Of a stretch of 64,000 nucleotides of DNA, positions 1,635-63,729 are shown piece after piece; position 1 is the first letter of the stretch; each line of letters opens with the position of its first letter. Source of the DNA: Selenomonadaceae bacterium (GTDB lineage Bacteria; Bacillota; Negativicutes; Selenomonadales; Selenomonadaceae); NCBI GenBank assembly GCA_017444295.1, contig JAFSWY010000172.1, positions 7,548-71,547 on the forward strand, given 5' to 3'. Made by a program: the position numbers and the translations under genes. The notes under the pieces were generated by a model, which saw only the letters and a list, made by a program, of their open reading frames with translations, was not told the origin of the DNA and made no database searches.

Positions 1635-3344
1635 CTATTGCAACAAGTCCAGCACGCCGCCCACGTTCTGGTTGGCCTGGGACAGCATGGACTGTGCCGT
1701 CTGGGAAAGGACGTTGTTCTTCGTATAGGTCATCATTTCCTTTGCCATGTCCGCATCCTGCATGGTGGACTCCGCGCTCTGGGTGTTCTCCTGGTCTATC
1801 ACCAGATTGTCCTCGGTGAAGCCGAGGCGGGAACGGTAGGCTCCCATGCGGGTGGCCTCGTTCAGGCTGTACTCAATGGCAAAATTCACATAACCGAGGG
1901 AAAGCGCCGCCAACTCCCTCGGGGTTGTGGCCGTCCCCTCGATTTTCAGTGCCCGTGGGTGCATGCTGTTGATGTAGACAGGGAGGTACTGGTTCTGCTT
2001 GGGGCCGTGATGGATGATGAGGGGATTGCCCGGCTCGTCTTCCTCATCAGATGCCGCCTCCGGCTCCGGATCCGGTGGCAGAGCCCAAGGGGGCGTATTC
2101 TTGTCATAAGTGCCATCATCATTGATACCAAGAATAGGCGACGAATCTTTTGAAATATAGTACTTCCCCGTGGGGTTGCCCTGAGAATCTGTTTCTTTTA
2201 CAAGATTCACATTGTGTCGTTCATCGATGGATACCACTGTTGCCGAATCGGAACGCAATGTGTTTGGTCTGGAACCATTGGCTGTGGCATAATTCGTATG
2301 GCTTGCAGCAATTCCGTCAAAAAGCGCAGCTTCCAAGTCCGATTCGTTTGTAACACCTTGTATCCCGATGGTGTATTCCCTTGCCTGTGAGTTCTTAGTG
2401 GAATATGCGGGGTTGTATGTGGATGCAGAAGTTGCCAAATTGGCATCAAAACGAATATTGATGAATTGATAGCATGCACCGCAAAGAATGGAAAATCCCT
2501 GCTGGTCAAAGTCCGAAGGATAACTGGCTGCCGTACCGTTCACGTTAGCGGCAGAAAAATCCACATATACTCCGATGCCCCCGGAATAGGACGTTTTCGC
2601 CTCGATTCCCACCGCAGTATGGGCAAACCCGGGACCGGCGGTTGTGTAGTTCCTCCCCGAAAAATTTGTTGCCAAATCCGATATGGTGTTCTGTATTATG
2701 GATCCACTCGTACCGGATGTACCAGCAGTACTGGATGCACTTGAGGTAGATGTGGTATATACACTTCCCGCAGGATTCGCTGTCTTGTATTTCCACACCG
2801 ATGTCACCGGGTCATTGGTGTATTCCACATTGTACACCGGCAACAGGTTCCCGTACTTGTCCTCTTCCAAGGGCAGTTCCACCGGGGCCTCGTAGCGCAT
2901 GGACTTGGGAGAATAATACTGGCCGTTCAGCAGCCTTCGCCCGTTGTAGTCCGTTTCCGCCGCAATGTCCGTGATGGTTTCCATGCGCTTGGAATATTCC
3001 TTGTTCAAGGTGTCCCTGTCCTGATCCGAGTTATGATCGTTCATGGAGTTCAGGAGCATTTCCTTCATGGTGCGGAGATTGTCCAGCACCGACTGGATGC
3101 CGCCCTCCGCCACGGCAATGAGGTTGTTCCCCGTCTTGACGTTCTGCACGTCCTGCCCCAGGGCGCGAACCATGACCTCCATTTTCTTCCCGATGGCATA
3201 GCCCGAAGAATCATCTCCCGCCCCGGTAATCCTCATGCCGGAGGACACCTTCTTGAGGGATTTCGCCAGCGCGCTGTTGTTCGCGTTCAACGTGTTCAGT
3301 GTATTATTCGCCGAAAGATTGTTCTTTACCACCATGGGCATCAT
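1635..3344 (-). CDS. fliC: Flagellin paralog 2 (569 aa) with a large variable central domain
   Basis: N-terminus MMPMVVKNNLSANNTLNTLNANNSALAKSLKKVSSGMRITGAGDDSSGYAIGKKM. C-terminus ...MAKEMMTYTKNNVLSQTAQSMLSQANQNVGGVLDLLQ. Both are canonical flagellin N and C domains. Confidence 0.97.
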   Translation of the reverse strand: MMPMVVKNNLSANNTLNTLNANNSALAKSLKKVSSGMRITGAGDDSSGYAIGKKMEVMVRALGQDVQNVKTGNNLIAVAEGGIQSVLDNLRTMKEMLLNSMNDHNSDQDRDTLNKEYSKRMETITDIAAETDYNGRRLLNGQYYSPKSMRYEAPVELPLEEDKYGNLLPVYNVEYTNDPVTSVWKYKTANPAGSVYTTSTSSASSTAGTSGTSGSIIQNTISDLATNFSGRNYTTAGPGFAHTAVGIEAKTSYSGGIGVYVDFSAANVNGTAASYPSDFDQQGFSILCGACYQFINIRFDANLATSASTYNPAYSTKNSQAREYTIGIQGVTNESDLEAALFDGIAASHTNYATANGSRPNTLRSDSATVVSIDERHNVNLVKETDSQGNPTGKYYISKDSSPILGINDDGTYDKNTPPWALPPDPEPEAASDEEDEPGNPLIIHHGPKQNQYLPVYINSMHPRALKIEGTATTPRELAALSLGYVNFAIEYSLNEATRMGAYRSRLGFTEDNLVIDQENTQSAESTMQDADMAKEMMTYTKNNVLSQTAQSMLSQANQNVGGVLDLLQ

Positions 3345-3392
3345 CCATCAACTCCTTGTTGCAAAAATCTTTCTTTCCTGAAAAAATAGCAT

Positions 3393-3406
3393 ATCCTTTG
3401 CAATCC
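3393..3406 (-). promoter_or_regulatory. Conserved flagellin leader box GGATTGCAAAGGAT (candidate CsrA site)
   Basis: The same box, GGATTGC(A/G)A(A/G)GGAT, occurs in the flagellin-3 leader at 41252-41265. A related copy GGGATTGCAAAG lies at about 1548-1560. GGA is the core of CsrA sites. Confidence 0.35.
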
Positions 3407-3413
3407 AACAGAT

Positions 3414-3441
3414 ATATCGTCATTTTCATAAAAAACCTTAA
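3414..3441 (-). promoter_or_regulatory. Sigma28-type promoter for flagellin paralog 2
   Basis: Minus strand: TTAA, 18 nt, CGATAT, about 70 nt upstream of the ATG at 3344. Confidence 0.55.
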
Positions 3442-3560
3442 GGCAAAATATCTTTATTATATTCTTTCCTGAAATTTCCTTAATCCATCCTCAAATGCAA
3501 AAAGGCTCCCATCTCCGATATTGCATAAAAAAACGGCAATAAAAATAATTTATCAGAATC

Positions 3561-3589
3561 TTGCCAAGGGTCAGAATCCATGATATAAT
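3561..3589 (+). promoter_or_regulatory. Near-consensus sigma70 promoter of orphan RNA gene 1
   Basis: TTGCCA (3561-3566), 17 nt, TATAAT (3584-3589). It is preceded by an A/T-rich UP-like tract, aaaaaaacggcaataaaaataattt. Confidence 0.65.
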
Positions 3590-3595
3590 ACAAGC

Positions 3596-3924
3596 AAATA
3601 GAGGGAAACGACCAGCGAGCCGCCCGCAGGGCCTTGGAGGGCAGGCGGCAGCGGTAGCCGAAACAGGCTTCCCTCTGGTGTAGGCGAAAGGGCGGATGTC
3701 TATTGATGCTTGACGGACAGGGAACCCCTTCGGACTGACTGATGAGTGCCACCTGTGAAGCGAGAGGATGTCCATCGAGGCAGGGGCGCGGAAACGTGCC
3801 TGAGGCTATATGGAATCGTCATTTGCACCGTCATCAGGAGGAAAGAACAGAGACACGAGGTTTTCACGAATGCCAATCTACGGGTAGACCGGCTTGCAGC
3901 GGTGTTGCAAGCCGGTTTTATTTT
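3596..3924 (+). ncRNA. Candidate structured small RNA, about 330 nt, family unknown
   Basis: Bounded by the promoter above and a strong terminator. No ORF with a ribosome-binding site. Complementary segments: 3600-3607/3669-3676 (8 bp) and 3710-3719/3769-3778 (9 of 10 bp). Eleven GGA triplets, including two GGATGTC. Confidence 0.5.
3889..3924 (+). terminator. Intrinsic terminator of RNA gene 1. It probably also stops the convergent glycosyltransferase operon.
   Basis: CCGGCTTGCA-gcggtg-TTGCAAGCCGG hairpin followed by TTTTATTTT. It lies 7 nt from the stop codon at 3931 of the minus-strand gene. Confidence 0.8.
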
Positions 3925-3930
3925 GCCCCG

Positions 3931-5130
3931 TTATTCCCCGGCATCCCTCCGCACCCTTGGCTCCTTCCGCATCAGCTCGTCGATGGCCGCGATGACCTGC
4001 CGGGGGGAGATGCGCTTGGAGCATTCCAGCTCCCGTTCCGTCCCGTTGTGGTAGGGGCAGATTTTCGACTGGAAGCGGGTCCGTATGTCATTGAAGCATC
4101 CATGGCACACATGGCGGTTGAGAATCCGGTAAGGCGTGTAGAACTCGCACCATGGCTGCGACATGCCGCTGATGAGGATCACCGGGCACCCCACGGCATG
4201 GGCCAGCCAGGAAAGGCCACTGCCAAGGCCGATGAAGAAATCCGCATAGTAGAGCATGTTTGCCCTGTCCATGATGCTGCGGTCCCCCGTCATGTCCTCC
4301 GCGCTGTCCGGCATCAGTGTCTCATAGTTCAGCTCCCGCTGGTAGGCGTGGCGGTCAATGCAGATGACCCGGTACCCCAGAGCGTTCAAATAGTCGGAAA
4401 CGATATCCCATCCACGGGGATAATGCCATCCCTTCGACAAGGTGGAGGCCTGCACGGCAATGCAGACATATTTCCCCTTCACGACACGGGGCCGCGTGGG
4501 ATGGAACGGGGGCAGGGGCGCAGGCCCGTGAACCCCCACGATTTCCCCTGCCATCTCATCCATGGGAAATGTCCGGGTATCGATGGGCGCTCCCATCTTG
4601 GTGTCAAACCATGCCGCCAGATAAAAAATGGCATAGGTATCCTCGGGCGCCTTCTCCCCCAATTGCGGAATCCCCGGATACAAATGCTCCGCAAGCTCCC
4701 TCAGATACTCCCCCTCCAGCTTATAATAAACCTCGCAGTGATACTTTTCCTTGAAGGCCTGGGCATAGGGAAGGGCAGCCAACGTGTCCCCCATGGCTCC
4801 CCAGACACTGTAGAACACCACCGTCTGCCCTTCGGGATCGAAGACATGGGAAAACACCGGCTCGCCATCCTTTTTCACATCGACGGCCCACCGGACAAAA
4901 TACTTTTCCATGGAAATGAGCAGAATGTCCGACACATCCTCATCCAGGAACATGTCCTCCGTATCATGGTCATATATCGATACATGCCAGTTCCCTTCCG
5001 GAACCTGCAAGCGAAGCCCTTGCCGAAAATCCAGCCTCAGGCCCGGAATCCCCGTCTCGCCCTGTACCGGCCCGGCAAATGGTTCCCATTCCTTGAACAG
5101 GCTCATTTGTGACAGCCAACGCTTATCCAT
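3931..5130 (-). CDS. GT9-fold heptosyltransferase-like protein resembling the TibC/Aah (BAHT) autotransporter O-heptosyltransferases
   Basis: GT9-like block FFIGLGSGLSWLAHAVGCPVILISG. C-terminal four-Cys cluster HVCHGCFNDIRTRFQSKICPYHNGTERELEC. The start was moved to ATG 5130 (GGAGG 8 nt upstream); the track start at 5199 is a GTG. Confidence 0.6.
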   Translation of the reverse strand: MDKRWLSQMSLFKEWEPFAGPVQGETGIPGLRLDFRQGLRLQVPEGNWHVSIYDHDTEDMFLDEDVSDILLISMEKYFVRWAVDVKKDGEPVFSHVFDPEGQTVVFYSVWGAMGDTLAALPYAQAFKEKYHCEVYYKLEGEYLRELAEHLYPGIPQLGEKAPEDTYAIFYLAAWFDTKMGAPIDTRTFPMDEMAGEIVGVHGPAPLPPFHPTRPRVVKGKYVCIAVQASTLSKGWHYPRGWDIVSDYLNALGYRVICIDRHAYQRELNYETLMPDSAEDMTGDRSIMDRANMLYYADFFIGLGSGLSWLAHAVGCPVILISGMSQPWCEFYTPYRILNRHVCHGCFNDIRTRFQSKICPYHNGTERELECSKRISPRQVIAAIDELMRKEPRVRRDAGE

Positions 5131-5205
5131 AGGCATGTCCTCCGGGTTCCTGCAAGTGAAGTAGCGAATCTCTCCCACGAAACCTCCCCCTCTTCCCACG
5201 CCGGT

Positions 5206-5865
5206 TCAGGAATCCTCGTATTCCCTGACCCGGAGCGTGAGATTCCTCTCCTCGCAAATCTTTCGGCAACGGGCGATTTCCTCGGCATCCTCCACCCTGT
5301 CCACAACGGTCAGAACCACATGCGGCACATATTTCTTGCAGTGCTCCGCAAAGGTGAGCATTCCCTCGTAGGATGCAATGCCGTGCTTCGCCCGTGTGAG
5401 TTCCAGGTAGCGCTCCGCGTTAGAGGCGTTGAGGCTGATGGAGACGGTGTCCAGCACGCCCTCGTAGTCCGCGGCGATTTCCCGCCCGTATTCCAGCTCG
5501 CCGAGTCCGTTGGTGTTGAGCCGTGTCGCCATGCCCGGATGCCGTTCCTTCACATAGTGCAGAAGAGCTGCCAGAACATCCTGCCGCTGGGTTGGCTCGC
5601 CGAAGCCGCAGAACACGACCTCCTTGATGTATTCCCAGGGCACGCTGTCCAGCTCTCTTTCGATTTCCTCAAGGGACGGCTCCTTTTTCAGCCAGAGGGA
5701 GGATTCCTCCGCCATCTTCTTCATGTTGCGCAGGCAGAACACACAGGAACAGTTGCAGCGGTTCGTGATGTTGACGTAGAGGTTCCGCTTGCCCTCCGGC
5801 TGAATCTTGAGGCTTTCCTCCAAGGGCAGGTACTTTCCTCCCTTGTGTGTCGCATATACAATCAT
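5206..5865 (-). CDS. Small radical SAM enzyme (219 aa)
   Basis: CxxxCxxC motif within NITNRCNCSCVFC. GGE-like FCGFGEPT. TNG motif. AAGGAG ribosome-binding site 8 nt before the ATG at 5865. Confidence 0.8.
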   Translation of the reverse strand: MIVYATHKGGKYLPLEESLKIQPEGKRNLYVNITNRCNCSCVFCLRNMKKMAEESSLWLKKEPSLEEIERELDSVPWEYIKEVVFCGFGEPTQRQDVLAALLHYVKERHPGMATRLNTNGLGELEYGREIAADYEGVLDTVSISLNASNAERYLELTRAKHGIASYEGMLTFAEHCKKYVPHVVLTVVDRVEDAEEIARCRKICEERNLTLRVREYEDS

Positions 5866-6020
5866 TGGGACATCTCCTTTTCCATGGCTTCCACGGCCAT
5901 CCCGTACTGCTGCCAGAGTTCCGGGGAAACCTCATCCCTCATCGGCGCAAACGCCTGCCGAAGCCCGCAGAAATTGCGGCAGGCGCGCAGGCGCTTTTCT
6001 GCGGGCAGTTCCCGCCCGTA

Positions 6021-8591
6021 CTAATTCAGCAGGGCAAACCATTCCATCTGGTGCCAGAGGAGGTCGTTTGCCGCAAGAGGTGCGCCCGTTCGTTCGCAAA
6101 GCGGTTCCCCGATGATCCCCACAGCCCCGTCCCCGGCCCGGGCGAGCTGCTGCAAAAGATGCGCCCACATCACATAGGGCAGGGGCTTCCCGTCGAGGAA
6201 ACAGGGCCGCAGCCACCGGCATTCCTCCATCAGGGAACGGCACACCAATGCTCCGTTCATGCTTCCGGAAGGATATTTCCCCCTGCAAAGGAGTTCCTGC
6301 CAAAGGGATTCCGGGGAAACCATCCCGAAGACGGGATCCACCCGGACATCCGTGTACGGATCTGTCGGGGCAAATTCCCTCCTGCCGTCCGCAAACAGTA
6401 TCCCAAAGGAGAAATCCTGGGATTCCGTGCAGGCGACCATTTTCATAAGCTTGTCCTCCTGCATGGAATATCCTGGCAGCAGCCACTGCACATATTCCCC
6501 CGTTGCCTCCCGGGAAAGCTGCCGGAAAACATCCTCTCCGGACATATCGTCCAGGAAGCGGATGCCCTCCCGCAAACCTTCCGGCAGCTGCGCCTGTTCC
6601 GTCGATGCCCCAATACCACAGACAAAAATCTCCTTGAAGGGATATGTCTGGGTCATGGCAAGACCCAAATTCCTGCATAACTCCTCATCGTCACCCAAAT
6701 AAGGGATGGCAACCGTGACCCGCTTCCCCTGCCGCAAGACCTTTTCCTCAAGGTATGCCTCCGCAATGAGCACGCTTGCCCCCATGAGATTGCGCAGGAC
6801 ATCGGGCCGCACGTCCCCGCTGTAGCGCAGGGGGATTTCCTCGCAATAGGGCTTGAGGTCGAAGTCCATCGGCTCCTCGATGGCAGAGCCGGGCGAAACG
6901 GTCTCCCCCTTGCCCAGCTTCTCGTAGCAGGTCTTGAGATAGGAGGCCGTCGGCGTGTAAACGGAATACTTCGCCACGTTGTTGATCCAGCTCGTCGCCA
7001 CCTTTGCGGCATACTGCTCATCGCTGCGCCAATGGTAATGGGCCAGGTGCAGATCCGGCACAACGGTCCAGGGAACCTTCTCTCCCGTGGCCTCCCAGCA
7101 GGCATAATGGCAACCCTGCATGAGACGGAAGCCCGGTCGAAGCGCAATCTCCCCTCCCACAGCCAGCTTCTGCCCGGGGGCGAAGTCCCTGCTGCGCCTG
7201 CAGGGACGGGAGAGCAGGAACCTTCCTTCCTCCTCGTGCTGGCGAAGGGGCTCGTAGAGCCGCCATTCCAGCTTGTGCAATTCCTCCGGGGAAAGTCCCT
7301 CCAATACCTCCCTGCAGGATTTTTCGCTGTCGGTATTGACCAGAAACTCGTCTGCGTCCAGGGGCAGGACGAGGTCGGCATGATGCTCCCTCACGGCCTC
7401 CCGCAAAAGCTCGTTCATAACCTCTGCATGGGCAAGCTCCACAGGCCGGAGCATCCGAACGAAAACAGGCAGTCCCTCTGCCTGAAGATTTTCGAGAATC
7501 TCTCCCGTCTTGTCCGCGCTGCTGTGGTTGGCAATGATGATCTCGTCGGCAAAGGCCAGGCTATGGCGGACAAAGCTCTCGATGATGTCTGCCTCATTCT
7601 TCACCATGGAGACAACGACAATTTTCCGCCCGTTTTTTTCTCTTTCCTGCAAACAAACCGCTTCCCTTCCATCAAGAATGGCACGGATTCCATCCATGCA
7701 CTGCGCATAGGCGTCCCATGCGCCGCACTCCAGAAATTCCGGCATTCGGTACGGTTTCACCCGATCATACTCATCCCGCAAAAGGGCCAGAAGATGCGCA
7801 TAGTCCTCCCGGGTTTCCAGGAACACGCGCCTCCTGTAATACTCCGTGCCCAGTCGGAACCATTCCATCCTGCTTTGCAGGATCACGTCCTTCTGCTGCC
7901 CTTCCTGCTCCCCATGGCGGCGGTAGTAGCTCAAGGAATCGCGGAAAACCGCGCATTTCCCCTTTTCCAGCAGTTCCAGCCACATGGCAACATCCGAGAT
8001 CGTCCTGTAGCCTTTCGCCTCCGCACGCCAGTAATGATGTTGCAGGTCCCGCCTGCGAAAGAGCACTGCAGAAGGCTCGCCGATGTAGTTCCGCATGTCC
8101 CGCAGCATGCGCCGCCCAAGTTCTGCACCGTCGAACACCTGGCAGGTCTCTCCGTTTTCCAGCCCCAGAAAGGAAAGCTTCCCGACCTTGCTTCCCTCCC
8201 CGTCCATCACACCCCGCTGTGAGGTCACAAGCGTTATCCCCGGGTCCCGCTCAAAACATTCCACCATGAGCCGGAGCTTTTCCGGTTCCAGCACATCGTC
8301 ATCCATGAGCCATTGCAGATACTCGCCATGGGCCAAATCCTCAAAAGGCATGAAATTTTCTTCCTTGGTCATTGCCCTTCGGTTTCTCACGTACCGCACA
8401 CGGGAATCCCCGGCATATCCCTGCATCAGCTGCGCGGTCGCCTCGTCGCGGCTGTTGTCGCAGACGATGATCTCGACTTTGGGATAGGTCTGGGCCAGGG
8501 CGCTCCGCAAAGTCTTCTCAAACAACTTCGGGCGCTCATAGGTCGGTATCATAATGCTGACAAGCCCTTGTACGGTCTCCGCTGTAGACAT
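6021..8591 (-). CDS. Three-module glycosyltransferase (856 aa): N-terminal GT2, central GT2-like module, C-terminal GT2-like module
   Basis: N-terminal module: VSIMIPTYERPKLFEKTLRSALAQTYPKVEIIVCDNSRDE. Central module: KIVVVSMVKNEADIIESFVRHSLAFADEIIIANHSS. C-terminal module: VTVAIPYLGDDEELCRNLGLAMTQTYPFKEIFVCG. Confidence 0.8.
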   Translation of the reverse strand: MSTAETVQGLVSIMIPTYERPKLFEKTLRSALAQTYPKVEIIVCDNSRDEATAQLMQGYAGDSRVRYVRNRRAMTKEENFMPFEDLAHGEYLQWLMDDDVLEPEKLRLMVECFERDPGITLVTSQRGVMDGEGSKVGKLSFLGLENGETCQVFDGAELGRRMLRDMRNYIGEPSAVLFRRRDLQHHYWRAEAKGYRTISDVAMWLELLEKGKCAVFRDSLSYYRRHGEQEGQQKDVILQSRMEWFRLGTEYYRRRVFLETREDYAHLLALLRDEYDRVKPYRMPEFLECGAWDAYAQCMDGIRAILDGREAVCLQEREKNGRKIVVVSMVKNEADIIESFVRHSLAFADEIIIANHSSADKTGEILENLQAEGLPVFVRMLRPVELAHAEVMNELLREAVREHHADLVLPLDADEFLVNTDSEKSCREVLEGLSPEELHKLEWRLYEPLRQHEEEGRFLLSRPCRRSRDFAPGQKLAVGGEIALRPGFRLMQGCHYACWEATGEKVPWTVVPDLHLAHYHWRSDEQYAAKVATSWINNVAKYSVYTPTASYLKTCYEKLGKGETVSPGSAIEEPMDFDLKPYCEEIPLRYSGDVRPDVLRNLMGASVLIAEAYLEEKVLRQGKRVTVAIPYLGDDEELCRNLGLAMTQTYPFKEIFVCGIGASTEQAQLPEGLREGIRFLDDMSGEDVFRQLSREATGEYVQWLLPGYSMQEDKLMKMVACTESQDFSFGILFADGRREFAPTDPYTDVRVDPVFGMVSPESLWQELLCRGKYPSGSMNGALVCRSLMEECRWLRPCFLDGKPLPYVMWAHLLQQLARAGDGAVGIIGEPLCERTGAPLAANDLLWHQMEWFALLN

Positions 8592-17037: not shown

Positions 17038-17526
17038 TCAGCCTTGCTCCCCCATACGGTAAACCTTGATTTCAGGCGGTTTTCCCGGCAGAAGCTCTGC
17101 CGTCATGAAGGACGGGCGCATCTCATCCCTGGGTCGGGATGCGCTGCCGGGATTCAAGACGCAGATCCTGCCCTTCTCGCAGTACACGCGATGCGTATGT
17201 CCGTAGACGGCAATGTCACATCCCGCCTCCTTGGCAGCCTCCAGCAAAATACCCGTTCCATGGTTCACATCATAGGTATGTCCATGGGCGAGAAAGATCT
17301 TGTGGCCTGCAGCCTCGACCACCGTCTCGTTGGGAACATCCGTCCTCGGCCAGTCCCCATTGCCCGCTACCTTCACCACGCCGGTATCCGACAGCTTCTC
17401 CAGATACCTTGCATCATCGACGAAATCCCCCGCATGAAGCCAGAGCTCCACTTCGGGTGCCACCTCCAGAACGGCCTCCACCGCCCCCATATTGCCATGG
17501 GTATCACTTACGATTCCTATTTTCAT
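17038..17526 (-). CDS. YfcE/MJ0936-family metallophosphoesterase (YsnB-like)
   Basis: SDTHGN...HAGD...GNGD...HGH...GHTH motif series. Confidence 0.9.
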   Translation of the reverse strand: MKIGIVSDTHGNMGAVEAVLEVAPEVELWLHAGDFVDDARYLEKLSDTGVVKVAGNGDWPRTDVPNETVVEAAGHKIFLAHGHTYDVNHGTGILLEAAKEAGCDIAVYGHTHRVYCEKGRICVLNPGSASRPRDEMRPSFMTAELLPGKPPEIKVYRMGEQG

Positions 17527-17530
17527 GTAT

Positions 17531-19228
17531 TCACCTCCCCGATTTTGCTAACAATCGAACTTCCAATGCACAAAGCGGTTTTTTTGACAAAATCACATTC
17601 TCATTGTGCGACCAGGCACTCCAGTCGCTGCCAGCCCCACGCACACGGAACCGAAGCCAGTATTTCTCCCCTCCGCGATCATCCATCCGCATCCTGATCC
17701 CGAAAACAGGCTTCGCCTTTCCCTCGGAATCTATTGCCTCCGCAACCGATCCATTCGATGCTGCCCCTCCCCAACCACAGGCAGGAGAATATACCTCATA
17801 AAAAATAGAAAAAAACGAGGATGAAAAAAACAGCTTCAATGCCTCTATGGGAGCATCCCCTTCACCATTGCAAGAGATGCCCTCCATGACAGGCAATTCC
17901 CATGCGCCTTGCGATCTTATGCAATAAATCAAACACGGCCTTCCTAAGCGCTTCTCCGGAACACCGGAAGAAAATTCATTCTGGCAAAGCAACTGGTGCA
18001 TTTTCTGGCAAACTTTATAAAAATCAAATTTTTTGATAAACTGCACATCCCTGCCCAAATAGAAGTCACACCATTGGAGAAGGTATTCATGATATGCATA
18101 TTTCCAGCTGTCATCGTCATCGAATGCACCATATGTCTCCAAAACAAATCTTTTCCAATAAAACGTAGGGCCAAGCAAACAAACGCCATATGCACGATGT
18201 GCATAGAGAAAATTCATCGACACATCAACGATATACCAGTCAATCCCCGATGCCTCGTTGACCAGGCACTGTGAAGCCAATGTATCGTCGTTCACACGGG
18301 TCAACATGGTAAATTTCGTTCCCGGTTTGCAAAAAAGCGCCCAATGGCTGAGAGACCCCATGATGCAGGCCACCTCTTCCGCATGGGAAAGAATGGCAAT
18401 CTGCTCGGCAATGGAAAAATTCTCCGGCTCAATGACGGAAAATCCTTTGTCGGCATAAAATCTCTCAAAGTACGCATCGTTGCAGCAAACCGTTTCCGTC
18501 GAGGAAAGTCCTGACCGCGTCAGAAAAATCTTTTTGCCCAAAAGATGCCGCACGCCTTCCGGGCTGCCCGCCCTTTCCGCCATGCAACGATAGGGGATGA
18601 GATACTCCTTCGTATAATTGCACCAACTGTGCACAGCCTCTTCCGGAATCGTCACGGAACGGAACCGCGCCGGGCGCTCGACCAGCAAAATTCTTTCCCT
18701 TGGTATACCAAGCAATTCAAGGAAAGGGGCATACCAAGCTGCTGTCCCCATAATGCAGAGGAACGCAACTTTCCCATTCTCCCTCACCGCATCCCGGTCA
18801 TCGGCCGGTGTTTTTCTGGGACTATTGGGGGGGGGGGGGAGCATATACCACATCCTGCCAAAACATTCCAGGAGAAAGTGCCCAAAGTGGTTTATCAGGA
18901 CACCGCCGTACACAATATCCTCGTTCACGTCGGTGATGTCCGAGTCCTTCACCTGATAGGACGCATTGACGCCATAAAATCCCCCGGCGGGAGGTTCCTC
19001 CCCATCCCGTATTAGGCCCGCCACAAACCGAAACGCGCCGTCACAGGCACCGCCGCTGTACTCCCCCTTGGCACGATCCCGGAGAATCGGCGGAAGGAGA
19101 ATCCCCCCTTCCAGCTTTTGGACTTTCAACGTCCGTTCCGAATAGCGGCTGACCCTGCATACATCCCGCCATTGCTCGTAATTCTGTGCATAGACCCTTT
19201 TCCTGATCTCTTCCTCGGGAATACTCAT
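17531..19228 (-). CDS. GT61/DUF563-type glycosyltransferase with C-terminal ChW-like repeats (565 aa)
   Basis: GGVLINHFGHFLLECFGRMWY is the DUF563 signature. Three C-terminal repeats of the G-W...G...IEA..L type resemble clostridial hydrophobic-W repeats. Confidence 0.65.
   Translation of the reverse strand: MSIPEEEIRKRVYAQNYEQWRDVCRVSRYSERTLKVQKLEGGILLPPILRDRAKGEYSGGACDGAFRFVAGLIRDGEEPPAGGFYGVNASYQVKDSDITDVNEDIVYGGVLINHFGHFLLECFGRMWYMLPPPPNSPRKTPADDRDAVRENGKVAFLCIMGTAAWYAPFLELLGIPRERILLVERPARFRSVTIPEEAVHSWCNYTKEYLIPYRCMAERAGSPEGVRHLLGKKIFLTRSGLSSTETVCCNDAYFERFYADKGFSVIEPENFSIAEQIAILSHAEEVACIMGSLSHWALFCKPGTKFTMLTRVNDDTLASQCLVNEASGIDWYIVDVSMNFLYAHRAYGVCLLGPTFYWKRFVLETYGAFDDDDSWKYAYHEYLLQWCDFYLGRDVQFIKKFDFYKVCQKMHQLLCQNEFSSGVPEKRLGRPCLIYCIRSQGAWELPVMEGISCNGEGDAPIEALKLFFSSSFFSIFYEVYSPACGWGGAASNGSVAEAIDSEGKAKPVFGIRMRMDDRGGEKYWLRFRVRGAGSDWSAWSHNENVILSKKPLCALEVRLLAKSGR
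18827..18839. repeat. Homopolymeric G13 (C13 on the coding strand) inside the GT61 gene
   Basis: Counted directly. The coding strand reads CTC CCC CCC CCC CCC AAT, which encodes L-PPPP-N, in frame in this sequence. Confidence 0.95.
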
Positions 19229-19827
19229 TCCACTTCCTCCCCAAGAATCTCGCGCAGTCTTTCCACCATCTTGTGGAGGGCCTCTCCCCGATGGCTGATC
19301 CTGTCCTTTTCCTCCAGGGACATCTCTGCAATGGTCCGGTTTCCCACATAAAAATACGGGTCATAGCCAAAACCGTTCGTTCCCCTCGCTGCCTTCCCCA
19401 CAACACCGTCACAACGTCCCTCCGTGAGGATCTCCGTCCCGTCCGTATCATGGAACACCAGGGCACAACGATAATCCGCCGGGGATTCCTCCACACCTGC
19501 ACGATCCAGTTCCTGCAGGAGCTTGGCATTGTTCGTGGCATCGTCGGCATGGGTGCCGGAAAAACGGGCAGAATACACACCGGGAGCACCGCCCAGCACT
19601 GCGACTTCCAGGCCGGAATCATCGGCAATGCAGGCACAGCCCGTCTTTTCACAATAGAACCGGGCCTTGATCCTGGCATTCTCCTCAAAGGTTTTCCCGT
19701 CCTCCACCGCTTCCGGAAGCTCGCCAAAATCTGCCAATGAGAGCACCTTCACCGGCAAATCGAGGAAGGCATTCGTCATCTCGCGGAGCTTCCCCTTATT
19801 CTTTGTCGCAATCACGATTTTCTTCAT
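19225..19827 (-). CDS. rdgB: dITP/XTP pyrophosphatase
   Basis: MKKIVIATKNKGKLREM...GFGYDPYF...SHRG. The start was trimmed to ATG 19827; the track ORF has a spurious 59-codon extension. Confidence 0.92.
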   Translation of the reverse strand: MKKIVIATKNKGKLREMTNAFLDLPVKVLSLADFGELPEAVEDGKTFEENARIKARFYCEKTGCACIADDSGLEVAVLGGAPGVYSARFSGTHADDATNNAKLLQELDRAGVEESPADYRCALVFHDTDGTEILTEGRCDGVVGKAARGTNGFGYDPYFYVGNRTIAEMSLEEKDRISHRGEALHKMVERLREILGEEVE

Positions 19828-19846
19828 GCCGCACCCCAGTCCCGAA

Positions 19847-20593
19847 TCATCCAACACGTCCCACTCGCCAAACCAGCTGTCCGCCCAATGCATCCTTCTG
19901 TCGGGATATGAGTTTCTCGATGCCTTGCCCGCCATAGCCCAGGAGCACATCCATCTCCTGCCGTGAAAAAGGGCGGCCCTCGCCGGTTCCCTGTACCTCC
20001 ACAAACTGCCCCTCGCCTGTCATGACCACATTCATGTCCACCAGGGCCTTGGAATCCTCCTCATAGCAGAGATCGAGAATCGGCTCTCCCTCATGGGAAA
20101 TCCCCACGGAAACCGCCGCGAGAAAATCCTTCACAGGAAAAGCATTTCCGGGCTTGTAGAAGGTCTCGCATGCCTCCACCAGAGCAATGAACGCCCCTGT
20201 GATGGAGGCCGTTCTCGTACCGCCATCCGCCTGCAGTACATCGCAGTCAATCATGACGGTGCGCTCCCCCAGAGCCTTCATGTCCACCACAGAGCGCAGG
20301 GAGCGGCCGATGAGCCGCTGTATCTCCTGGGTTCTCCCCGACTGCCTTCCACGGGATGCCTCCCTCTGGGCGCGCGTAGACGTTGCCCCGGGGAGCAGGG
20401 AATACTCTGCCTTCACCCAGCCCTCGCCGGTTCCCTTGAGGAAAAACGGGACATGATCTTCCACGGATGCGGCACAGATGACCTTCGTATTCCCCATTTC
20501 AATGAGCACAGAGCCATCGGGATACCGCTGGAATCCCCGCGTCAGCCGCAAAGGCCGCATTTCATCCGGTCTGCGTCCATCCGGTCTTGGCAT
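19847..20593 (-). CDS. rph: Ribonuclease PH
   Basis: [43 protein letters not shown]...[19 protein letters not shown]. The start was trimmed to ATG 20593. Confidence 0.93.
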
Positions 20594-20666
20594 AGTCTCC
20601 TTCACTCCCGTCAAAGAAAAATGAGGCCCTTCCTGCAAGACCTCATCCACTTTTCAAAAAACGTGC

Positions 20667-23266: not shown

Positions 23267-23390
23267 ATAACGCATAGTTCAAATTTTGCCAACGGCAAAA
23301 TATTCTTATTGTCGTTTCGACGGACTTGTTCCGTCATAACGCATAGTTCAAATTTTGCCAACGGCAAAATATTCTTATTGTCGTTTCGAC
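23267..23390. repeat. Tandem duplication of a 55-nt promoter-bearing module (period 69 nt)
   Basis: ATAACGCATAGTTCAAATTTTGCCAACGGCAAAATATTCTTATTGTCGTTTCGAC occurs at 23267-23321 and 23336-23390, separated by the palindrome GACGGActtgtTCCGTC. On the minus strand it reads TTGGCA, 17 nt, TATAAT (23264-23292), facing murI. Confidence 0.85.
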
Positions 23391-25055: not shown

Positions 25056-25170
25056 GATACCATTTTGTTCGCTCTATGTCCTATTATGAAAGATAACCCA
25101 CTTTAATACTTTTTAATTTTACCACTATTCCCTTATAAATTCCATACAGAATAAAAAAAAATAACGAACT

Positions 25171-30690: not shown

Positions 30691-32052
30691 CTACATACCA
30701 TTCACAATGCGCTTGAAATCGCGCCCTCTTTCCTCAAAGCCGCTGTACATATCAAAGCTGGCACAGGCCGGGGAGAGCAGCACCACCTGGGGCGGCCTTG
30801 CCATCCCATGGGCGATTTCCAGTGCCTTTTCCATGGAATATCCCGCCTCATGGATATGTTCCTCGGGAATCCCCTGCGCTGCTGCCGCCTCATGGAAACG
30901 CTTGGCCGCATCTCCCACAAGGATGAGCTCATCCACCCGCTCCTTCACCAATCCCATGAACTCCGAAAGGTCCGTGAGCTTGTCGTCCCCCCCCGCCAGG
31001 AGAATGATGTGATTGGGAAAGGTCTCCAGTGCCTTGATGGCGGAATCCGTGTTGGTGGCCTTGGAGTCATTATAGTAGGGAACTCCGTCCACATCCCTGA
31101 CATGCTCGATGCGATGCTCCACTCCGTGAAAGGACTTCAGCACCTGTGCCATCTTTTCCGGTTTCGCCCCGGCGAGAAAGGCCGCCATGGAAGCCGCCAA
31201 TGCGTTTTCCACATTGTGCCCGCCCTTGATTCCAAGCTCCGAAACGCTGCAGAGCCCATGGCGCTGGCCTTTCCAGCGGATGACCAGCATATCCCCTTCG
31301 AGGAAGGCCCCTTCCTCCATTTCCCGATGCCTGCTGAAAAAGCAGACCTGGCAATGGGCGCGTTCCTTCATGGAGCGGGTGCGCTCATCGTCATAATTCA
31401 GGACGAGATAGTCCTCCATGGTTTCCTCGGCAAACATGCGCTCCTTCATCTGTTGATAAACTTCCATGGAACCATGGCGCACGATGTGGTCCGGCGTGAC
31501 GTTGAGCACTACCGACACATGGGGATGGAACTCATTCGTCGCCTCCATCTGGTAGCTGGAGATCTCCGCCGCAATGCAGCCGCCCTCCCCGACGCGGACG
31601 GCCTCTTCACAGAGAGGGATTCCGATATTCCCCCCAACACCAACCTTGTCGTAATGGGTCTTGAGCAGCAGTCCCAGGAGCGTCACCGTCGTCGTCTTCC
31701 CGTTCGTCCCCGTCACGGCACAGATGGGAGACCCTGCCAGACGATAGGCCATCTCCACCTCACTGATGACGGGGATCCCCCACTGAAGGGCTCTTTGCAG
31801 GATGGGAATGCGCAGGGGAACCGCAGGGGAGACCAGGACGATATCCACGCCCTCCAAAAGCTCATCCTTCTGGGGGCCAAAGACCAGCTCGATGCCCTCT
31901 TGCCGAAGCTCCGAAAAATCCTGCTGGATCTCCGCTTCCGCCTTGGCATCGCTCAAAATGACCCTCGCCCCCATGGACTTCGCCATCTTCGCCGCAGCAA
32001 AGCCGCTGATTCCGGCACCGATCACCAACATCGTCTTATCCTGCAATTCCAT
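30691..32052 (-). CDS. murD: UDP-MurNAc-L-alanine--D-glutamate ligase
   Basis: VIGAGISG...VTGTNGKTTT...ASFDMY. Confidence 0.95.
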   Translation of the reverse strand: MELQDKTMLVIGAGISGFAAAKMAKSMGARVILSDAKAEAEIQQDFSELRQEGIELVFGPQKDELLEGVDIVLVSPAVPLRIPILQRALQWGIPVISEVEMAYRLAGSPICAVTGTNGKTTTVTLLGLLLKTHYDKVGVGGNIGIPLCEEAVRVGEGGCIAAEISSYQMEATNEFHPHVSVVLNVTPDHIVRHGSMEVYQQMKERMFAEETMEDYLVLNYDDERTRSMKERAHCQVCFFSRHREMEEGAFLEGDMLVIRWKGQRHGLCSVSELGIKGGHNVENALAASMAAFLAGAKPEKMAQVLKSFHGVEHRIEHVRDVDGVPYYNDSKATNTDSAIKALETFPNHIILLAGGDDKLTDLSEFMGLVKERVDELILVGDAAKRFHEAAAAQGIPEEHIHEAGYSMEKALEIAHGMARPPQVVLLSPACASFDMYSGFEERGRDFKRIVNGM

Positions 32053-39420: not shown

Positions 39421-41229
39421 TTATTGAAGCAAACTCAACACCGCAGAACTGTTCTGGTTCGCCTGGGAAAGCATGGACTGCGCCGACTGCAGGAGCACGT
39501 TGTTCTTCGTGTACTCCGTCATCTCCTTCGCCATGTCCGCATCGCGGATCGTGGACTCGGAATTCTGCACATTCTCCGCCGCCGTGGTCAGATTGCTTGC
39601 CGTGTACTCCAGACGGCTCTGGAGCGCACCGATGGTGGTCTGCTCATTGAGGGCCTTCCGCAGGGACTGGTCAAACAGGCGAATGGCATCATTAGCCTGC
39701 TCCCTGGTGGCAATGCTCACCTTCGTGCCATCAGCCGCCTCAAGCCCCATGGCCTTGGCCCGCATATCGTGGAACCCGAACTTGATGGACTGGTTGGCCT
39801 TGGTGCCCACCTGCAGAGTCAGATCCCCCACCTTGCCGCCGTAGTTCGATTCCCAATGGACGGTCAATCCGTCAATGATGGAGGTCTTGCTCTCCGGCGC
39901 ATACCAGAAGGTGGTGGAGCCTCCCTCCGGCACAACGCTGTCCTTGGTCTTCGCCATGCGCCTTCCGCTGGCATCGCTGCCCGTGATGGCACCGGTGTCA
40001 TCGTTGGTCAAGTCAATACCGCAACAATTCAGCAAAAATTCATCATCTGTTGCCGCCGCTGCCGCATCTGCCTTAAACTGTGTTATTAATCCCGTCCACG
40101 TGGAGAACTTCCCCCCCGTTGCAGCACTGACAGCACCATCCAACGCACTGGCTCCATGATGCACCAACACGTTCATGAAATTCTTCATGGCATCTTCCCC
40201 GCCTTGATTTGCCATATAGCGGAGAGCCATATATCCTCCTGTATAATAGATTGTTGTCCCTGTCCCTGTCGAGGTGAAATCCGATAGGGACGCACCATTG
40301 ACAGCAGCTCTCGTCAATCCACTCTTTTGCTCATCATCAATACCATGCACCAGTTCAGCCATGCCCTCTGCGATAGCCCCTGGAAGTGTCCCGAAATTAT
40401 TGATTGACGAGGCCATAATCGCATGAACCATTTCATGGGCAATCGTACGATCCAAAGTTCCCCCTATAAGCTGGCTCGAATTGTTTGGATCTGGAATAAA
40501 TGCCGTTCCATTTACATTGGACGTGTCATGTATATCCAGATTCTTAAAGAATCTCATATTCACCGTGAGGTCAAGCGAATTCGTCCTGCCATTTGAACCA
40601 CCATTATTGAAGGACACCCATGCCAATGCATTCGCCTGATTACCGGACGTGACCTCTTCAAGCTTTACATTGATATCCTTGCAATCCGCCCATTCATTCC
40701 TGAAGCTGACCCCATAGGACTGCTCAATCAAGTCCAGTGCATTCTCCAGCCATTCGGTGCTCAGCGCACTGACAATCATGTCCTGCACCGTCTCGTTTTG
40801 GATTCCCGTCTGTCCGTCCAGGAGATACTTGCCGTTGTACTGCACCAAGGCATTGTCGTCCACCTGCTGGACGTACTGGTTCACTTCCTTCTGCATGATG
40901 GCGCGGTCCTCGTCCGTATTGTGGTCGTTGGCGGAGTCCAGCGCCTTCTCCTTGAGGGTCCGAAGGATGTCCACCGTAGAGGACACGGCCCCTTCCGCCA
41001 CCTTCAACAGTGCCGTGCCATTCTGCGTGTTGCGGATGTCCTGTTCCAGCCCGCGAAGCTGGACGCGCATCTTCTCCGAGATGGAGTAGCCCGAGGCATC
41101 ATCCCCCGCGCCGTTGATGCGCATGCCAGAAGAGACCTTCTTGAGGCTCTTGGAGAGGGCATTCGAGTTCTCGTTCAACTGGTTCAGCGTATTCACCGCC
41201 GACATATTGTTCTTTACCACCATTGCCAT
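39421..41229 (-). CDS. fliC: Flagellin (602 aa) with a zincin metalloprotease-like module in the variable region (flagellinolysin-type)
   Basis: Canonical flagellin ends: MAMVVKNNMSAVNTLNQLNENSNALSKSLKKVSSGMRINGAGDDASGYSISEKM at the N-terminus and MAKEMTEYTKNNVLLQSAQSMLSQANQNSSAVLSLLQ at the C-terminus. The central domain contains HEMVH (aa 265-269, nt 40423-40437) followed by AEGMAE 19-23 aa later. Confidence 0.9.
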   Translation of the reverse strand: MAMVVKNNMSAVNTLNQLNENSNALSKSLKKVSSGMRINGAGDDASGYSISEKMRVQLRGLEQDIRNTQNGTALLKVAEGAVSSTVDILRTLKEKALDSANDHNTDEDRAIMQKEVNQYVQQVDDNALVQYNGKYLLDGQTGIQNETVQDMIVSALSTEWLENALDLIEQSYGVSFRNEWADCKDINVKLEEVTSGNQANALAWVSFNNGGSNGRTNSLDLTVNMRFFKNLDIHDTSNVNGTAFIPDPNNSSQLIGGTLDRTIAHEMVHAIMASSINNFGTLPGAIAEGMAELVHGIDDEQKSGLTRAAVNGASLSDFTSTGTGTTIYYTGGYMALRYMANQGGEDAMKNFMNVLVHHGASALDGAVSAATGGKFSTWTGLITQFKADAAAAATDDEFLLNCCGIDLTNDDTGAITGSDASGRRMAKTKDSVVPEGGSTTFWYAPESKTSIIDGLTVHWESNYGGKVGDLTLQVGTKANQSIKFGFHDMRAKAMGLEAADGTKVSIATREQANDAIRLFDQSLRKALNEQTTIGALQSRLEYTASNLTTAAENVQNSESTIRDADMAKEMTEYTKNNVLLQSAQSMLSQANQNSSAVLSLLQ

Positions 41230-62706: not shown

Positions 62707-63729
62707 ATGAAAAAAAGCGTAGAGATTCTCGGTCTTCCTGTCATAAGTATTACCGAGGGACGTGAGCTCGGCATGAGCAAGACGCTTCTCATTGATGCAA
62801 GGAACGGCAAGATAGCCGCTGTCACCATCGAGGATGAGGACTGGTATCGCGGCGTAAAGCTCATTCCCTATGAGTCCGTCATCGCCATCGGCGATGATGC
62901 CGTGACCGTCACCAACAGTGAGAACATCCTGAAACTCGATGAGGCGGCAGACTACGAGAACCTGCTGGATGAGAACATCCGCATCATCGACACGAAGGCC
63001 ATAACGAAAACCGGAACGATCCAGGGCAAGATTTCCGAACTCTTCATCGGCGACGACGGCAAGATCGAGAAGTGCGAGATTACAGCTCCCGATGGCACGA
63101 CCACCGAAATCATGGCGGACCAGATTTCCATCTTCGGCAAGCAGGTCACGGTCATCGACCCCGACGGGGAAAAAAAAACTGAATTTGTAGCTCCGCCGAC
63201 ACCGGCAGCCGCACCTGCTCCTGAGCCCGCTCCGGCGGAACCTGCCGCACCGGCTCCTGCAGCAGAGGCTGCTCCTGTAGAGGTTCCTGCGGCAGAGGCG
63301 CCCGCGACGGCTCCTGCAGAGGAAGCACCTGCACCTGAGCCGAAAGCGGAAGAGCCGCCGAAGGCAGAGGAGGCTCCTGCAGCAAAAGTTGAGCCAGAGC
63401 CTGCACCGGAGACAAAGGAAGATCCCAGGAAAGAGGCTCCCAAGGCAGCTCCTGCAGAGGAAAAACCGGAGCCCAGGAAAGAGGCTCCCAAGGCGGCAAA
63501 ACCCGCTGCACCCAAAGCTGCCCCTGCGGCAGATGCAGCAAAACAGGCGGCTGACAAGGCAACGGAGGAACGCCATCGCCGTTTCCTGCTTGGCAAGAAG
63601 GCAGCCCGCACCATCAAGATGGACAACGGCATCGTCATCGTCGAAGCCGGCGCCGACATCACCGAGGAGGTCCTCCAGAAGGCCAAGCTCGCCAACAAGT
63701 TCATCGAGCTTTCCATGAACGTACAGTAA
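62707..63729 (+). CDS. PRC-barrel domain protein with a long Pro/Ala/Glu-rich linker
   Basis: Two PRC-barrel-like units (ILGLPVISITEGRELG... and IIDTKAITKTGTIQGKISELFI...), then about 130 aa of low-complexity APAPEPAPAE, then a conserved C-terminal 50 aa. Confidence 0.65.
   Translation: MKKSVEILGLPVISITEGRELGMSKTLLIDARNGKIAAVTIEDEDWYRGVKLIPYESVIAIGDDAVTVTNSENILKLDEAADYENLLDENIRIIDTKAITKTGTIQGKISELFIGDDGKIEKCEITAPDGTTTEIMADQISIFGKQVTVIDPDGEKKTEFVAPPTPAAAPAPEPAPAEPAAPAPAAEAAPVEVPAAEAPATAPAEEAPAPEPKAEEPPKAEEAPAAKVEPEPAPETKEDPRKEAPKAAPAEEKPEPRKEAPKAAKPAAPKAAPAADAAKQAADKATEERHRRFLLGKKAARTIKMDNGIVIVEAGADITEEVLQKAKLANKFIELSMNVQ

Follow-up and report, generated by a model that had tools for sequence, protein, structure and literature searches.

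Can a single homopolymer inside a glycosyltransferase gene act as a phase-variation switch in a member of the Negativicutes? The question is raised by a 64-kb stretch of DNA from a Selenomonadaceae bacterium (contig JAFSWY010000172.1; hereafter, the window), in which a gene for a 565-amino acid (aa) protein of glycosyltransferase family 61 (GT61) contains 13 consecutive cytosines on its coding strand. An earlier note on this DNA had described the tract as in frame in a GT61-type gene of a Negativicute and as having no counterpart of comparable length in the window, and had predicted that gain or loss of one nucleotide (nt) would truncate the protein before its catalytic core. We propose that the C13 tract is a hypermutable simple-sequence repeat (SSR) that functions, through slipped-strand mispairing, as a translational ON/OFF switch for an accessory GT61 glycosyltransferase of this bacterium, a reading to which we assign a probability of roughly two thirds (0.68).

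The C13 tract and the reading frame

The tract can be read directly from the window: 13 consecutive G residues at positions 18827-18839 of the plus strand correspond to C13 on the coding (minus) strand, where the context is ...TATATGCT CCCCCCCCCCCCC AATAGTCC... and the surrounding codons are TGG TAT ATG CTC CCC CCC CCC CCC AAT AGT CCC. The residues involved are L130, P131-P134 and N135 of the 565-aa open reading frame (ORF) 17531..19228(-), that is, the LPPPPN segment in the ON frame that the earlier note had reported. When tract lengths from 9 to 17 were simulated, a full-length protein (564-566 aa) was obtained only with C10, C13 and C16; frameshifts of the -1 class yield products of 146-148 aa, and those of the +1 class yield products of 134-136 aa. 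Both classes lose almost all of the GT61 domain (residues 115-306) along with the Rossmann-like domains of the structural model described below, in agreement with the predicted loss of the catalytic core from a 1-nt change, with the nuance that the invariant G116-H117 motif precedes the tract by a short distance. In the alternative frames, translation after the tract ends within 1-13 codons, and there is no conserved downstream ORF.

A census of all homopolymers of at least 7 nt in the window identified, as the next longest, two A9 runs, two A8 runs and one C8 run, the longest other G run being 7 nt, so that the tract indeed has no comparable counterpart in the 64 kb. In 225 kb of sequence consisting of the window and related Selenomonadaceae loci, there are 28 G/C runs of 6 nt, 8 of 7 nt, a single run of 8 nt, none of 9-12 nt and the one of 13 nt; besides the tract, no G/C run longer than 8 nt was detected in the window or in the approximately 160 kb of related loci. 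Other long G/C runs were not found in the loci of GT61 homologues and in related species either, indicating that long tracts are not a general property of the GT61 family. Among 100 dinucleotide-preserving shuffles, 5 contained a 13-mer of G or C (mean, 0.06 per shuffle). A first-order composition model thus makes the tract only moderately improbable, but relative to the real sequence of Selenomonadaceae, in which long G/C runs are strongly avoided, it is an extreme outlier.

A tract at the same codons is present in at least five other independent assemblies, which speaks against an assembly artefact or a chance of composition confined to one contig. An origin of the poly-G in two-colour Illumina chemistry was also considered and rejected, since the tract is found in six or more assemblies and lies in frame in the interior of the sequence. 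The C8 run (30987-30994, plus strand) is located inside a Mur ligase (MurD-like) gene and the A9 runs at 25153-25161, about 100 nt upstream of ftsZ, and at 63170-63178, near 63.17 kb; these three runs would be suitable controls, within the same genome, for sequencing error at homopolymers.

Tract length differs between assemblies

All tract lengths discussed here come from assembled contigs. In the protein database, the gene is represented in only two 90% clusters, one of which holds proteins of 421, 147 and 568 aa. The source contigs of these proteins, L001 (ERZ27318099) and L002 (ERZ28595054), are metagenomic and represent a single strain; they belong to different ENA assemblies and are syntenic with the window. 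Over 13,267 aligned nt, L001 and L002 show 0 mismatches and a single gap, which is the tract itself: with C13, L002 encodes an intact 568-aa protein (P0064), and with C12, the gene in L001 is split into ORFs of 147 and 421 aa. The ON/OFF state thus follows the repeat number both in the simulation and in the contigs (C12, split, in L001; C13, intact, in L002 and the window), and the tract, located within an ORF, exceeds the length at which slippage becomes frequent (about 8 or more for G/C), as in SSR contingency loci. Two genes are called at this locus of L001. Together with the contig ends described next, this illustrates how a homopolymer can fragment metagenome-assembled genomes (MAGs) and give rise to apparent pseudogenes.

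Further assemblies were recovered with exact-match probes for FumB, the ysnB-like protein and a 183-aa hypothetical protein, which are identical between strains. The contigs of three of these assemblies stop at or in the tract. Contig L094 (Logan SRR34217802) starts with C15 followed by AATAGTCC, implying a tract of at least C15, and matches the window allele at 100% elsewhere; L092 (ERZ27317918, a 67-kb contig) starts 1 nt after the tract; and L095 (Logan SRR14556315) starts 4 nt after it, its upstream partner L102 ending in ...TATATGCT followed by C12 (at least C12). The L001/L002 pair and the contig ends at the tract document lengths of 12, 13 and at least 15 C's and show that the site repeatedly interrupts de Bruijn assemblies. 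The complete states on record are C13 and one C12 only. The length polymorphism consists, then, of a C12 versus C13 difference that is the sole one in 13.3 kb and of contig ends with at least 15 and at least 12 C's, sequencing or assembly error or a shared sample being possible sources. The comparisons of tract length and of codons among orthologues suggested by the earlier note reveal a C12 OFF form, a C13 ON form and a contig end of at least 15 C's, and a pure C tract, not mixed CCN codons, at the locus, outcomes that favor a switch. Searches of genome contigs with the GT61 protein yielded no relative, the species representative set lacking the gene, and searches of metagenome contigs with a gapped DNA pattern around the tract and with the protein yielded no match. 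An exact look-up of the contig that encodes the window protein likewise returned no record.

A GT61 enzyme with the tract in a lineage-specific loop

The assignment of the gene product to GT61, made in the earlier note, is upheld by the Pfam profile PF04577 (Glyco_transf_61/DUF563), which matches residues 115-306 over profile positions 1-136 of 137 with 37.5 bits (cut-off 27; E 3.4e-9) and is present in all 61 of the 61 database homologues, some of which are fused to GT41 domains. A sequence search of the PDB with the window protein detected no relative, and no NCBIfam model matches it; an orthologue with a name is not available. An AlphaFold2 model built from 29 homologues has a mean predicted local distance difference test score (pLDDT) of 90.8 and a predicted template modelling score (pTM) of 0.81. 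It consists of an N-terminal beta domain, a Rossmann-like alpha/beta region extending to about residue 355 and followed by a helical linker, and a C-terminal beta-rich domain (residues 433-561). The only significant fold matches in the PDB (E of 0.001 or lower) are 16 chains of POMGNT2, with E values of 1e-9 to 1e-7. Template modelling (TM) scores over the whole chain are 0.30-0.38, low values that are probably due to the domain arrangement. Both the profile threshold and the fold place the protein in GT61.

The animal GT61 enzymes POMGNT2 and EOGT resemble the modelled protein in the catalytic region and in a C-terminal beta-sandwich-like domain, and they act on protein O-glycans or on proteins, POMGNT2 extending a protein O-glycan. 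They differ in that sequence identity is only 9-12% and in that the window protein is bacterial, with no signal or membrane anchor noticed; the likeness carries no information on phase variation. ChW repeats score in the C-terminal region of some full-length homologues (e.g., P0024). For the C-terminal 139 aa of the window protein, Pfam gives no match at all, to the ChW domain (PF07538) or any other, even at an E of 10, and the domain, which may be a divergent ChW relative, is not classed as ChW.

Homologues with 50% identity or less share the pattern ...GHF(I/L)LE..GR(L/M)WY(V/I)L, followed by 6-8 variable residues and a K/R-hydrophobic strand. None of them contains PPPP, and the window protein has approximately 15 extra residues at this loop (PPPPNSPRKTPADDRDAVRE). 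In the model, residues 131-150 have a pLDDT of 64-69, compared with more than 90 in the flanks, and form the least confident stretch of the catalytic region. The absence of PPPP and of the extra residues from the homologues, together with the low pLDDT, indicates that in the model the tract falls in a lineage-specific surface loop, in which in-frame changes of length (P3, P4, P5) should therefore be tolerated.

A single-gene insertion with diverged 3' alleles

In keeping with the earlier attribution of the DNA to a Negativicute, the best matches of the neighboring genes are to Selenomonadaceae, Mitsuokella and Selenomonas; by RNase PH, the closest genomes are an uncultured Selenomonadaceae MAG (79%), a Selenomonas sp. 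MAG (77%) and Mitsuokella jalaludinii (76%). On one side, the surroundings include ftsZ, a racemase, a thioesterase, a CofE-like protein, rph and rdgB, and on the other side, a class I fumarase, fumarate reductase and a PAS-GGDEF-EAL protein. In five related species (L003-L007), the ysnB-like gene directly follows rdgB, without the GT61 gene, and the GC content of the latter is 50.6% versus 57-59% in its neighbors. Because of its absence from the five relatives and its low GC content, the GT61 gene is best described, from gene order and composition, as a lineage-specific low-GC single-gene insertion into an rph-rdgB-ysnB operon (window positions 17038-20650). A scan for promoters and terminators around it returned counts at the level of shuffled sequence and does not support a separate promoter; an OFF state could possibly be polar on the ysnB-like gene.

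P0004, which among the full-length homologues is the closest (43% identity), is also encoded by a gene on its own, located in a znuA-znuC-znuB operon with overlapping stops and starts (L083:755-5022); more distant GT61 homologues, in contrast, sit in glycan clusters. That the GT61 gene and P0004 are each wedged alone into an operon suggests a mobile single-gene cassette without visible mobility genes. Elsewhere in the neighborhood, just upstream of the Asp/Glu racemase-like gene, there are two direct copies of a 55-bp element (23267-23321 and 23336-23390; 98-100% identical), each containing the palindrome ATTTTGCCGTTGGCAAAAT. Conserved in L001 and L002 as well, the pair may represent a duplicated operator.

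The gene itself is a mosaic. Compared with L001 and L002 in steps of 100 nt, the flanks and the first 900 nt of the window gene are 98-100% identical, the last 800 nt are 67-84% identical, and the next gene returns to 96-99%. By the Nei-Gojobori method (window versus L002), codons 1-300 have 0.015 synonymous (dS) and 0.0014 non-synonymous (dN) substitutions per site, and codons 301-565 have a dS of 0.99 and a dN of 0.167 (ratio 0.17). These rates indicate that both 3' alleles are under purifying selection and that the 3' half is to be read as an old functional allele brought in by recombination, not as a product of decay. With a dN/dS of 0.17 at a dS of about 1, a good Shine-Dalgarno sequence and an ATGA overlap with rdgB, the gene looks functional and not decaying. 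Contig L096 begins exactly at the 5'/3' junction, at nt 899 of the gene, a break that would be expected in a sample containing the two alleles together. Strain L093 (L093:3-293), whose FumB is identical, carries a third allele of much greater divergence, with 29% identity in the last 85 residues of the C-terminal part, which brings the number of 3' alleles to at least three. A tract that turns a gene ON and OFF, joined to specificity modules that differ between alleles, is a hallmark of contingency loci subject to diversifying pressure. The features of the locus are listed in Table 1.

Table 1. Features of the GT61 locus (window coordinates)
Feature	Position	Strand	Description
GT61-family glycosyltransferase gene, 565 aa, ON frame	17531..19228	-	ORF; Pfam PF04577; AlphaFold2 model; POMGNT2 matches
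C13 homopolymer	18827..18839	-	Third base of CTC (L130) and four CCC codons (P131-P134); proposed slipped-strand switch
Lineage-specific loop, codons 130-150 (LPPPPNSPRKTPADDRDAVRE)	18779..18841	-	About 15 aa longer than in homologues; holds the tract
5' 900 nt, codons 1-300	18329..19228	-	Near identical between strains
3' allelic module, codons 301-565	17531..18328	-	End of catalytic region, helical linker, C-terminal beta-rich domain
GGAGG Shine-Dalgarno sequence	19236..19240	-	7 nt upstream of the GT61 ATG; read from sequence
rdgB/Ham1-like gene	19225..19893	-	Directly upstream; TGA stop overlaps the GT61 ATG (ATGA); syntenic gene is Ham1p_like in L001 and L002
ysnB/YfcE-like metallophosphoesterase gene (Metallophos_2)	17038..17526	-	Begins 4 nt after the GT61 stop

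Alternative explanations

Several observations weigh against a selected switch. Long G/C homopolymers are known to be hard to sequence and assemble, which could account for the C12, C13 and at least C15 states and for the contig breaks. L001 and L002 may stem from the same study, or even be two assemblies of one sample, and a literature look-up of the sample and run accessions returned no match bearing on their independence. Of the three fully assembled copies, one has the frameshift and is the single complete OFF copy. The predicted products of C11, C12, C14 and C15 tracts (for both alleles), other than P0063, are absent from a collection of 15 billion proteins by exact look-up. Little can be concluded from the conservation of the tract, given how closely the strains agree in the 5' half (dS 0.015). 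In addition, the GT61 gene lies outside any glycan cluster, within a housekeeping operon. As to the acceptor, considered below, no flagellin gene was found within 5 kb on either side of GT61 homologues in other loci, which leaves the idea of a flagellin acceptor without support from guilt by association.

One alternative is that the tract is real and merely encodes a neutral poly-proline loop with CCC codons, the differences in length and the contig breaks being sequencing and assembly errors, with no selected switching. CCC is a common codon, accounting for 37% of the proline codons in 13 neighboring genes, so that PPPP encoded by four CCC codons is not very improbable; 5% of the dinucleotide shuffles contain a 13-mer; breaks of contigs at long G/C homopolymers are a known technical effect; and one complete OFF copy is on record, with no other frameshift product. 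The real sequences, however, are devoid of G/C runs of 9-12 nt throughout the 225 kb, and PPPP is part of a lineage-specific insertion that the homologues lack. Moreover, a one-base difference between consensus sequences that is the only one in 13.3 kb and a contig end with at least 15 C's exceed occasional read noise, and, from established knowledge on slipped-strand mispairing, a C13 tract is mutable whether or not its variation is selected. We regard a neutral loop as unlikely.

It is also conceivable that a recently acquired accessory gene is becoming a pseudogene, with the tract as a mutational liability and the OFF copies as dead ends. The low-GC, lineage-specific character of the insertion and the frameshift in one of the three fully assembled copies favor such a scenario. 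However, purifying selection acts on both diverged 3' alleles (dN/dS 0.17), the Shine-Dalgarno sequence and translational coupling are intact, and the OFF copy carries no other lesion, being equal to the ON copy over the rest of the 13.3 kb, which makes ongoing decay quite improbable. Finally, transcriptional slippage or programmed ribosomal frameshifting, whereby one allele would give rise to a short and a long product, has very little to recommend it: long homopolymers can cause slippage of RNA polymerase, and OFF alleles could be leaky, but the alternative frames stop within 1-13 codons and have no conserved ORF downstream and, to our knowledge, the documented slippage sites of bacteria are A or T runs, not G or C runs.

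A possible mechanism and the acceptor

Under the hypothesis of an SSR switch, the tract would gain or lose C's during replication. Lengths of C10, C13 and C16 would keep the frame, placing P3, P4 or P5 in a tolerant surface loop, and at all other lengths translation would end after 134-148 residues, with the loss of nearly the whole catalytic region and of the C-terminal beta-rich domain. A population would then be a mixture of cells that add and cells that do not add one sugar decoration to the acceptor. We infer that the variation in length is biological, reversible and selected, the likely selective agents being phages or host antibodies. The swappable 3' half would probably set the specificity for the acceptor or the linkage.

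The designation 'surface-glycan gene' for this locus, used in the earlier note, is likewise one that we infer. Our best guess for the acceptor is either a glycan on the cell surface or a surface protein that carries O-glycans, for example flagellin. That the glycan is linked to protein can reasonably be supposed from the POMGNT2-like fold, the GT41 fusions among the homologues and the occurrence in the window of flagellin genes together with glycosyltransferases, and we put it forward as a hypothesis. The window contains two large flagellin genes, one of which is adjoined by genes for a TibC-like protein heptosyltransferase and a double GT2 protein. The flagellin of Selenomonas sputigena is reportedly heavily O-glycosylated (Rath et al., 2018).

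The flagellin genes merit a description of their own. The first, encoding a 569-aa protein (1635-3344, minus strand), belongs to a possible flagellin glycosylation island (1635-8591) along with the TibC-like GT9 protein heptosyltransferase (3931-5199, minus strand; TibC_1st at E 2e-14) and an 856-aa protein with two GT2 domains (6021-8591, minus strand). The second, encoding a 602-aa protein (39421-41229, minus strand), has a central HEMVH...E motif and weak, below-threshold scores for Peptidase_M9 and Peptidase_MA_2, and this flagellin may be proteolytic (flagellinolysin-like).

Relation to known systems and implications

Homopolymer-based phase variation of glycosyltransferases is textbook knowledge for Campylobacter, Neisseria, Haemophilus and Helicobacter, and nearly all of the examples are pathogens. 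In the futA and futB fucosyltransferase genes of Helicobacter pylori, a poly-C tract of about 12-14 nt near the 5' third of the gene turns the enzyme ON and OFF and thereby diversifies surface glycans, as proposed here. These enzymes, however, belong to GT10, act on the Lewis antigens of the lipopolysaccharide of a pathogen and have C-terminal heptad repeats in place of an allelic beta-rich domain.

The lipooligosaccharide, capsule and flagellin-glycan genes of Campylobacter jejuni (e.g., Cj1295) are similar in that they contain an intragenic G/C homopolymer in which a change of 1 nt in either direction truncates a glycan-modifying enzyme (PMC8355987; PMC3068675). In C. jejuni, poly-G tracts of 8-11 nt mutate at rates of 1e-4 to 1.6e-3 per division and may exert polar effects on the genes that follow (PMC8355987), which supports the mutability proposed for the C13 tract. 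Differences in length between near-identical genomes and possible polar effects downstream may likewise be shared with the locus described here. C. jejuni, in contrast, mostly has G9-G10, lacks mismatch repair and carries dozens of tracts per genome, whereas here there is a single C13 in 64 kb, in a lone gene for a GT61 enzyme within a housekeeping operon of a Negativicute host. In Neisseria gonorrhoeae, pgtA has a poly-G tract inside a pilin galactosyltransferase gene whose product extends a protein O-glycan, and the tract is present in some strains and absent in others (PMC2193922). The GT family and the acceptor are different, a protein acceptor being hypothetical in the present case.

Our literature searches found no report of SSR phase variation for Selenomonas, Veillonella or Negativicutes. 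Although the mechanism itself is familiar, its host clade, the GT61 family and the orphan insertion with recombining 3' alleles are new. With still less confidence than the switch itself, at somewhat short of even odds, we suggest that this may be the first SSR contingency locus in Negativicutes and the first phase-variable GT61 gene: a horizontally inserted single-gene cassette in a housekeeping operon, with a poly-C ON/OFF loop and an exchangeable C-terminal specificity module (at least three alleles in one species), whose joint effect would be to vary a glycoconjugate of the cell surface (possibly the O-glycans of flagellin) in a commensal of ruminant-type gut samples under phage or antibody pressure.

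On the practical side, this one site breaks assemblies and creates 'pseudogenes' in MAGs. If the proposed switch is real, commensal anaerobes of the gut or rumen use the same bet-hedging device, which would bear on phage-host dynamics and on the strain-level heterogeneity seen in metagenomes, and an orphan GT61 gene that combines such a tract with 3' alleles that recombine would provide a compact system for asking what bacterial GT61 enzymes glycosylate.

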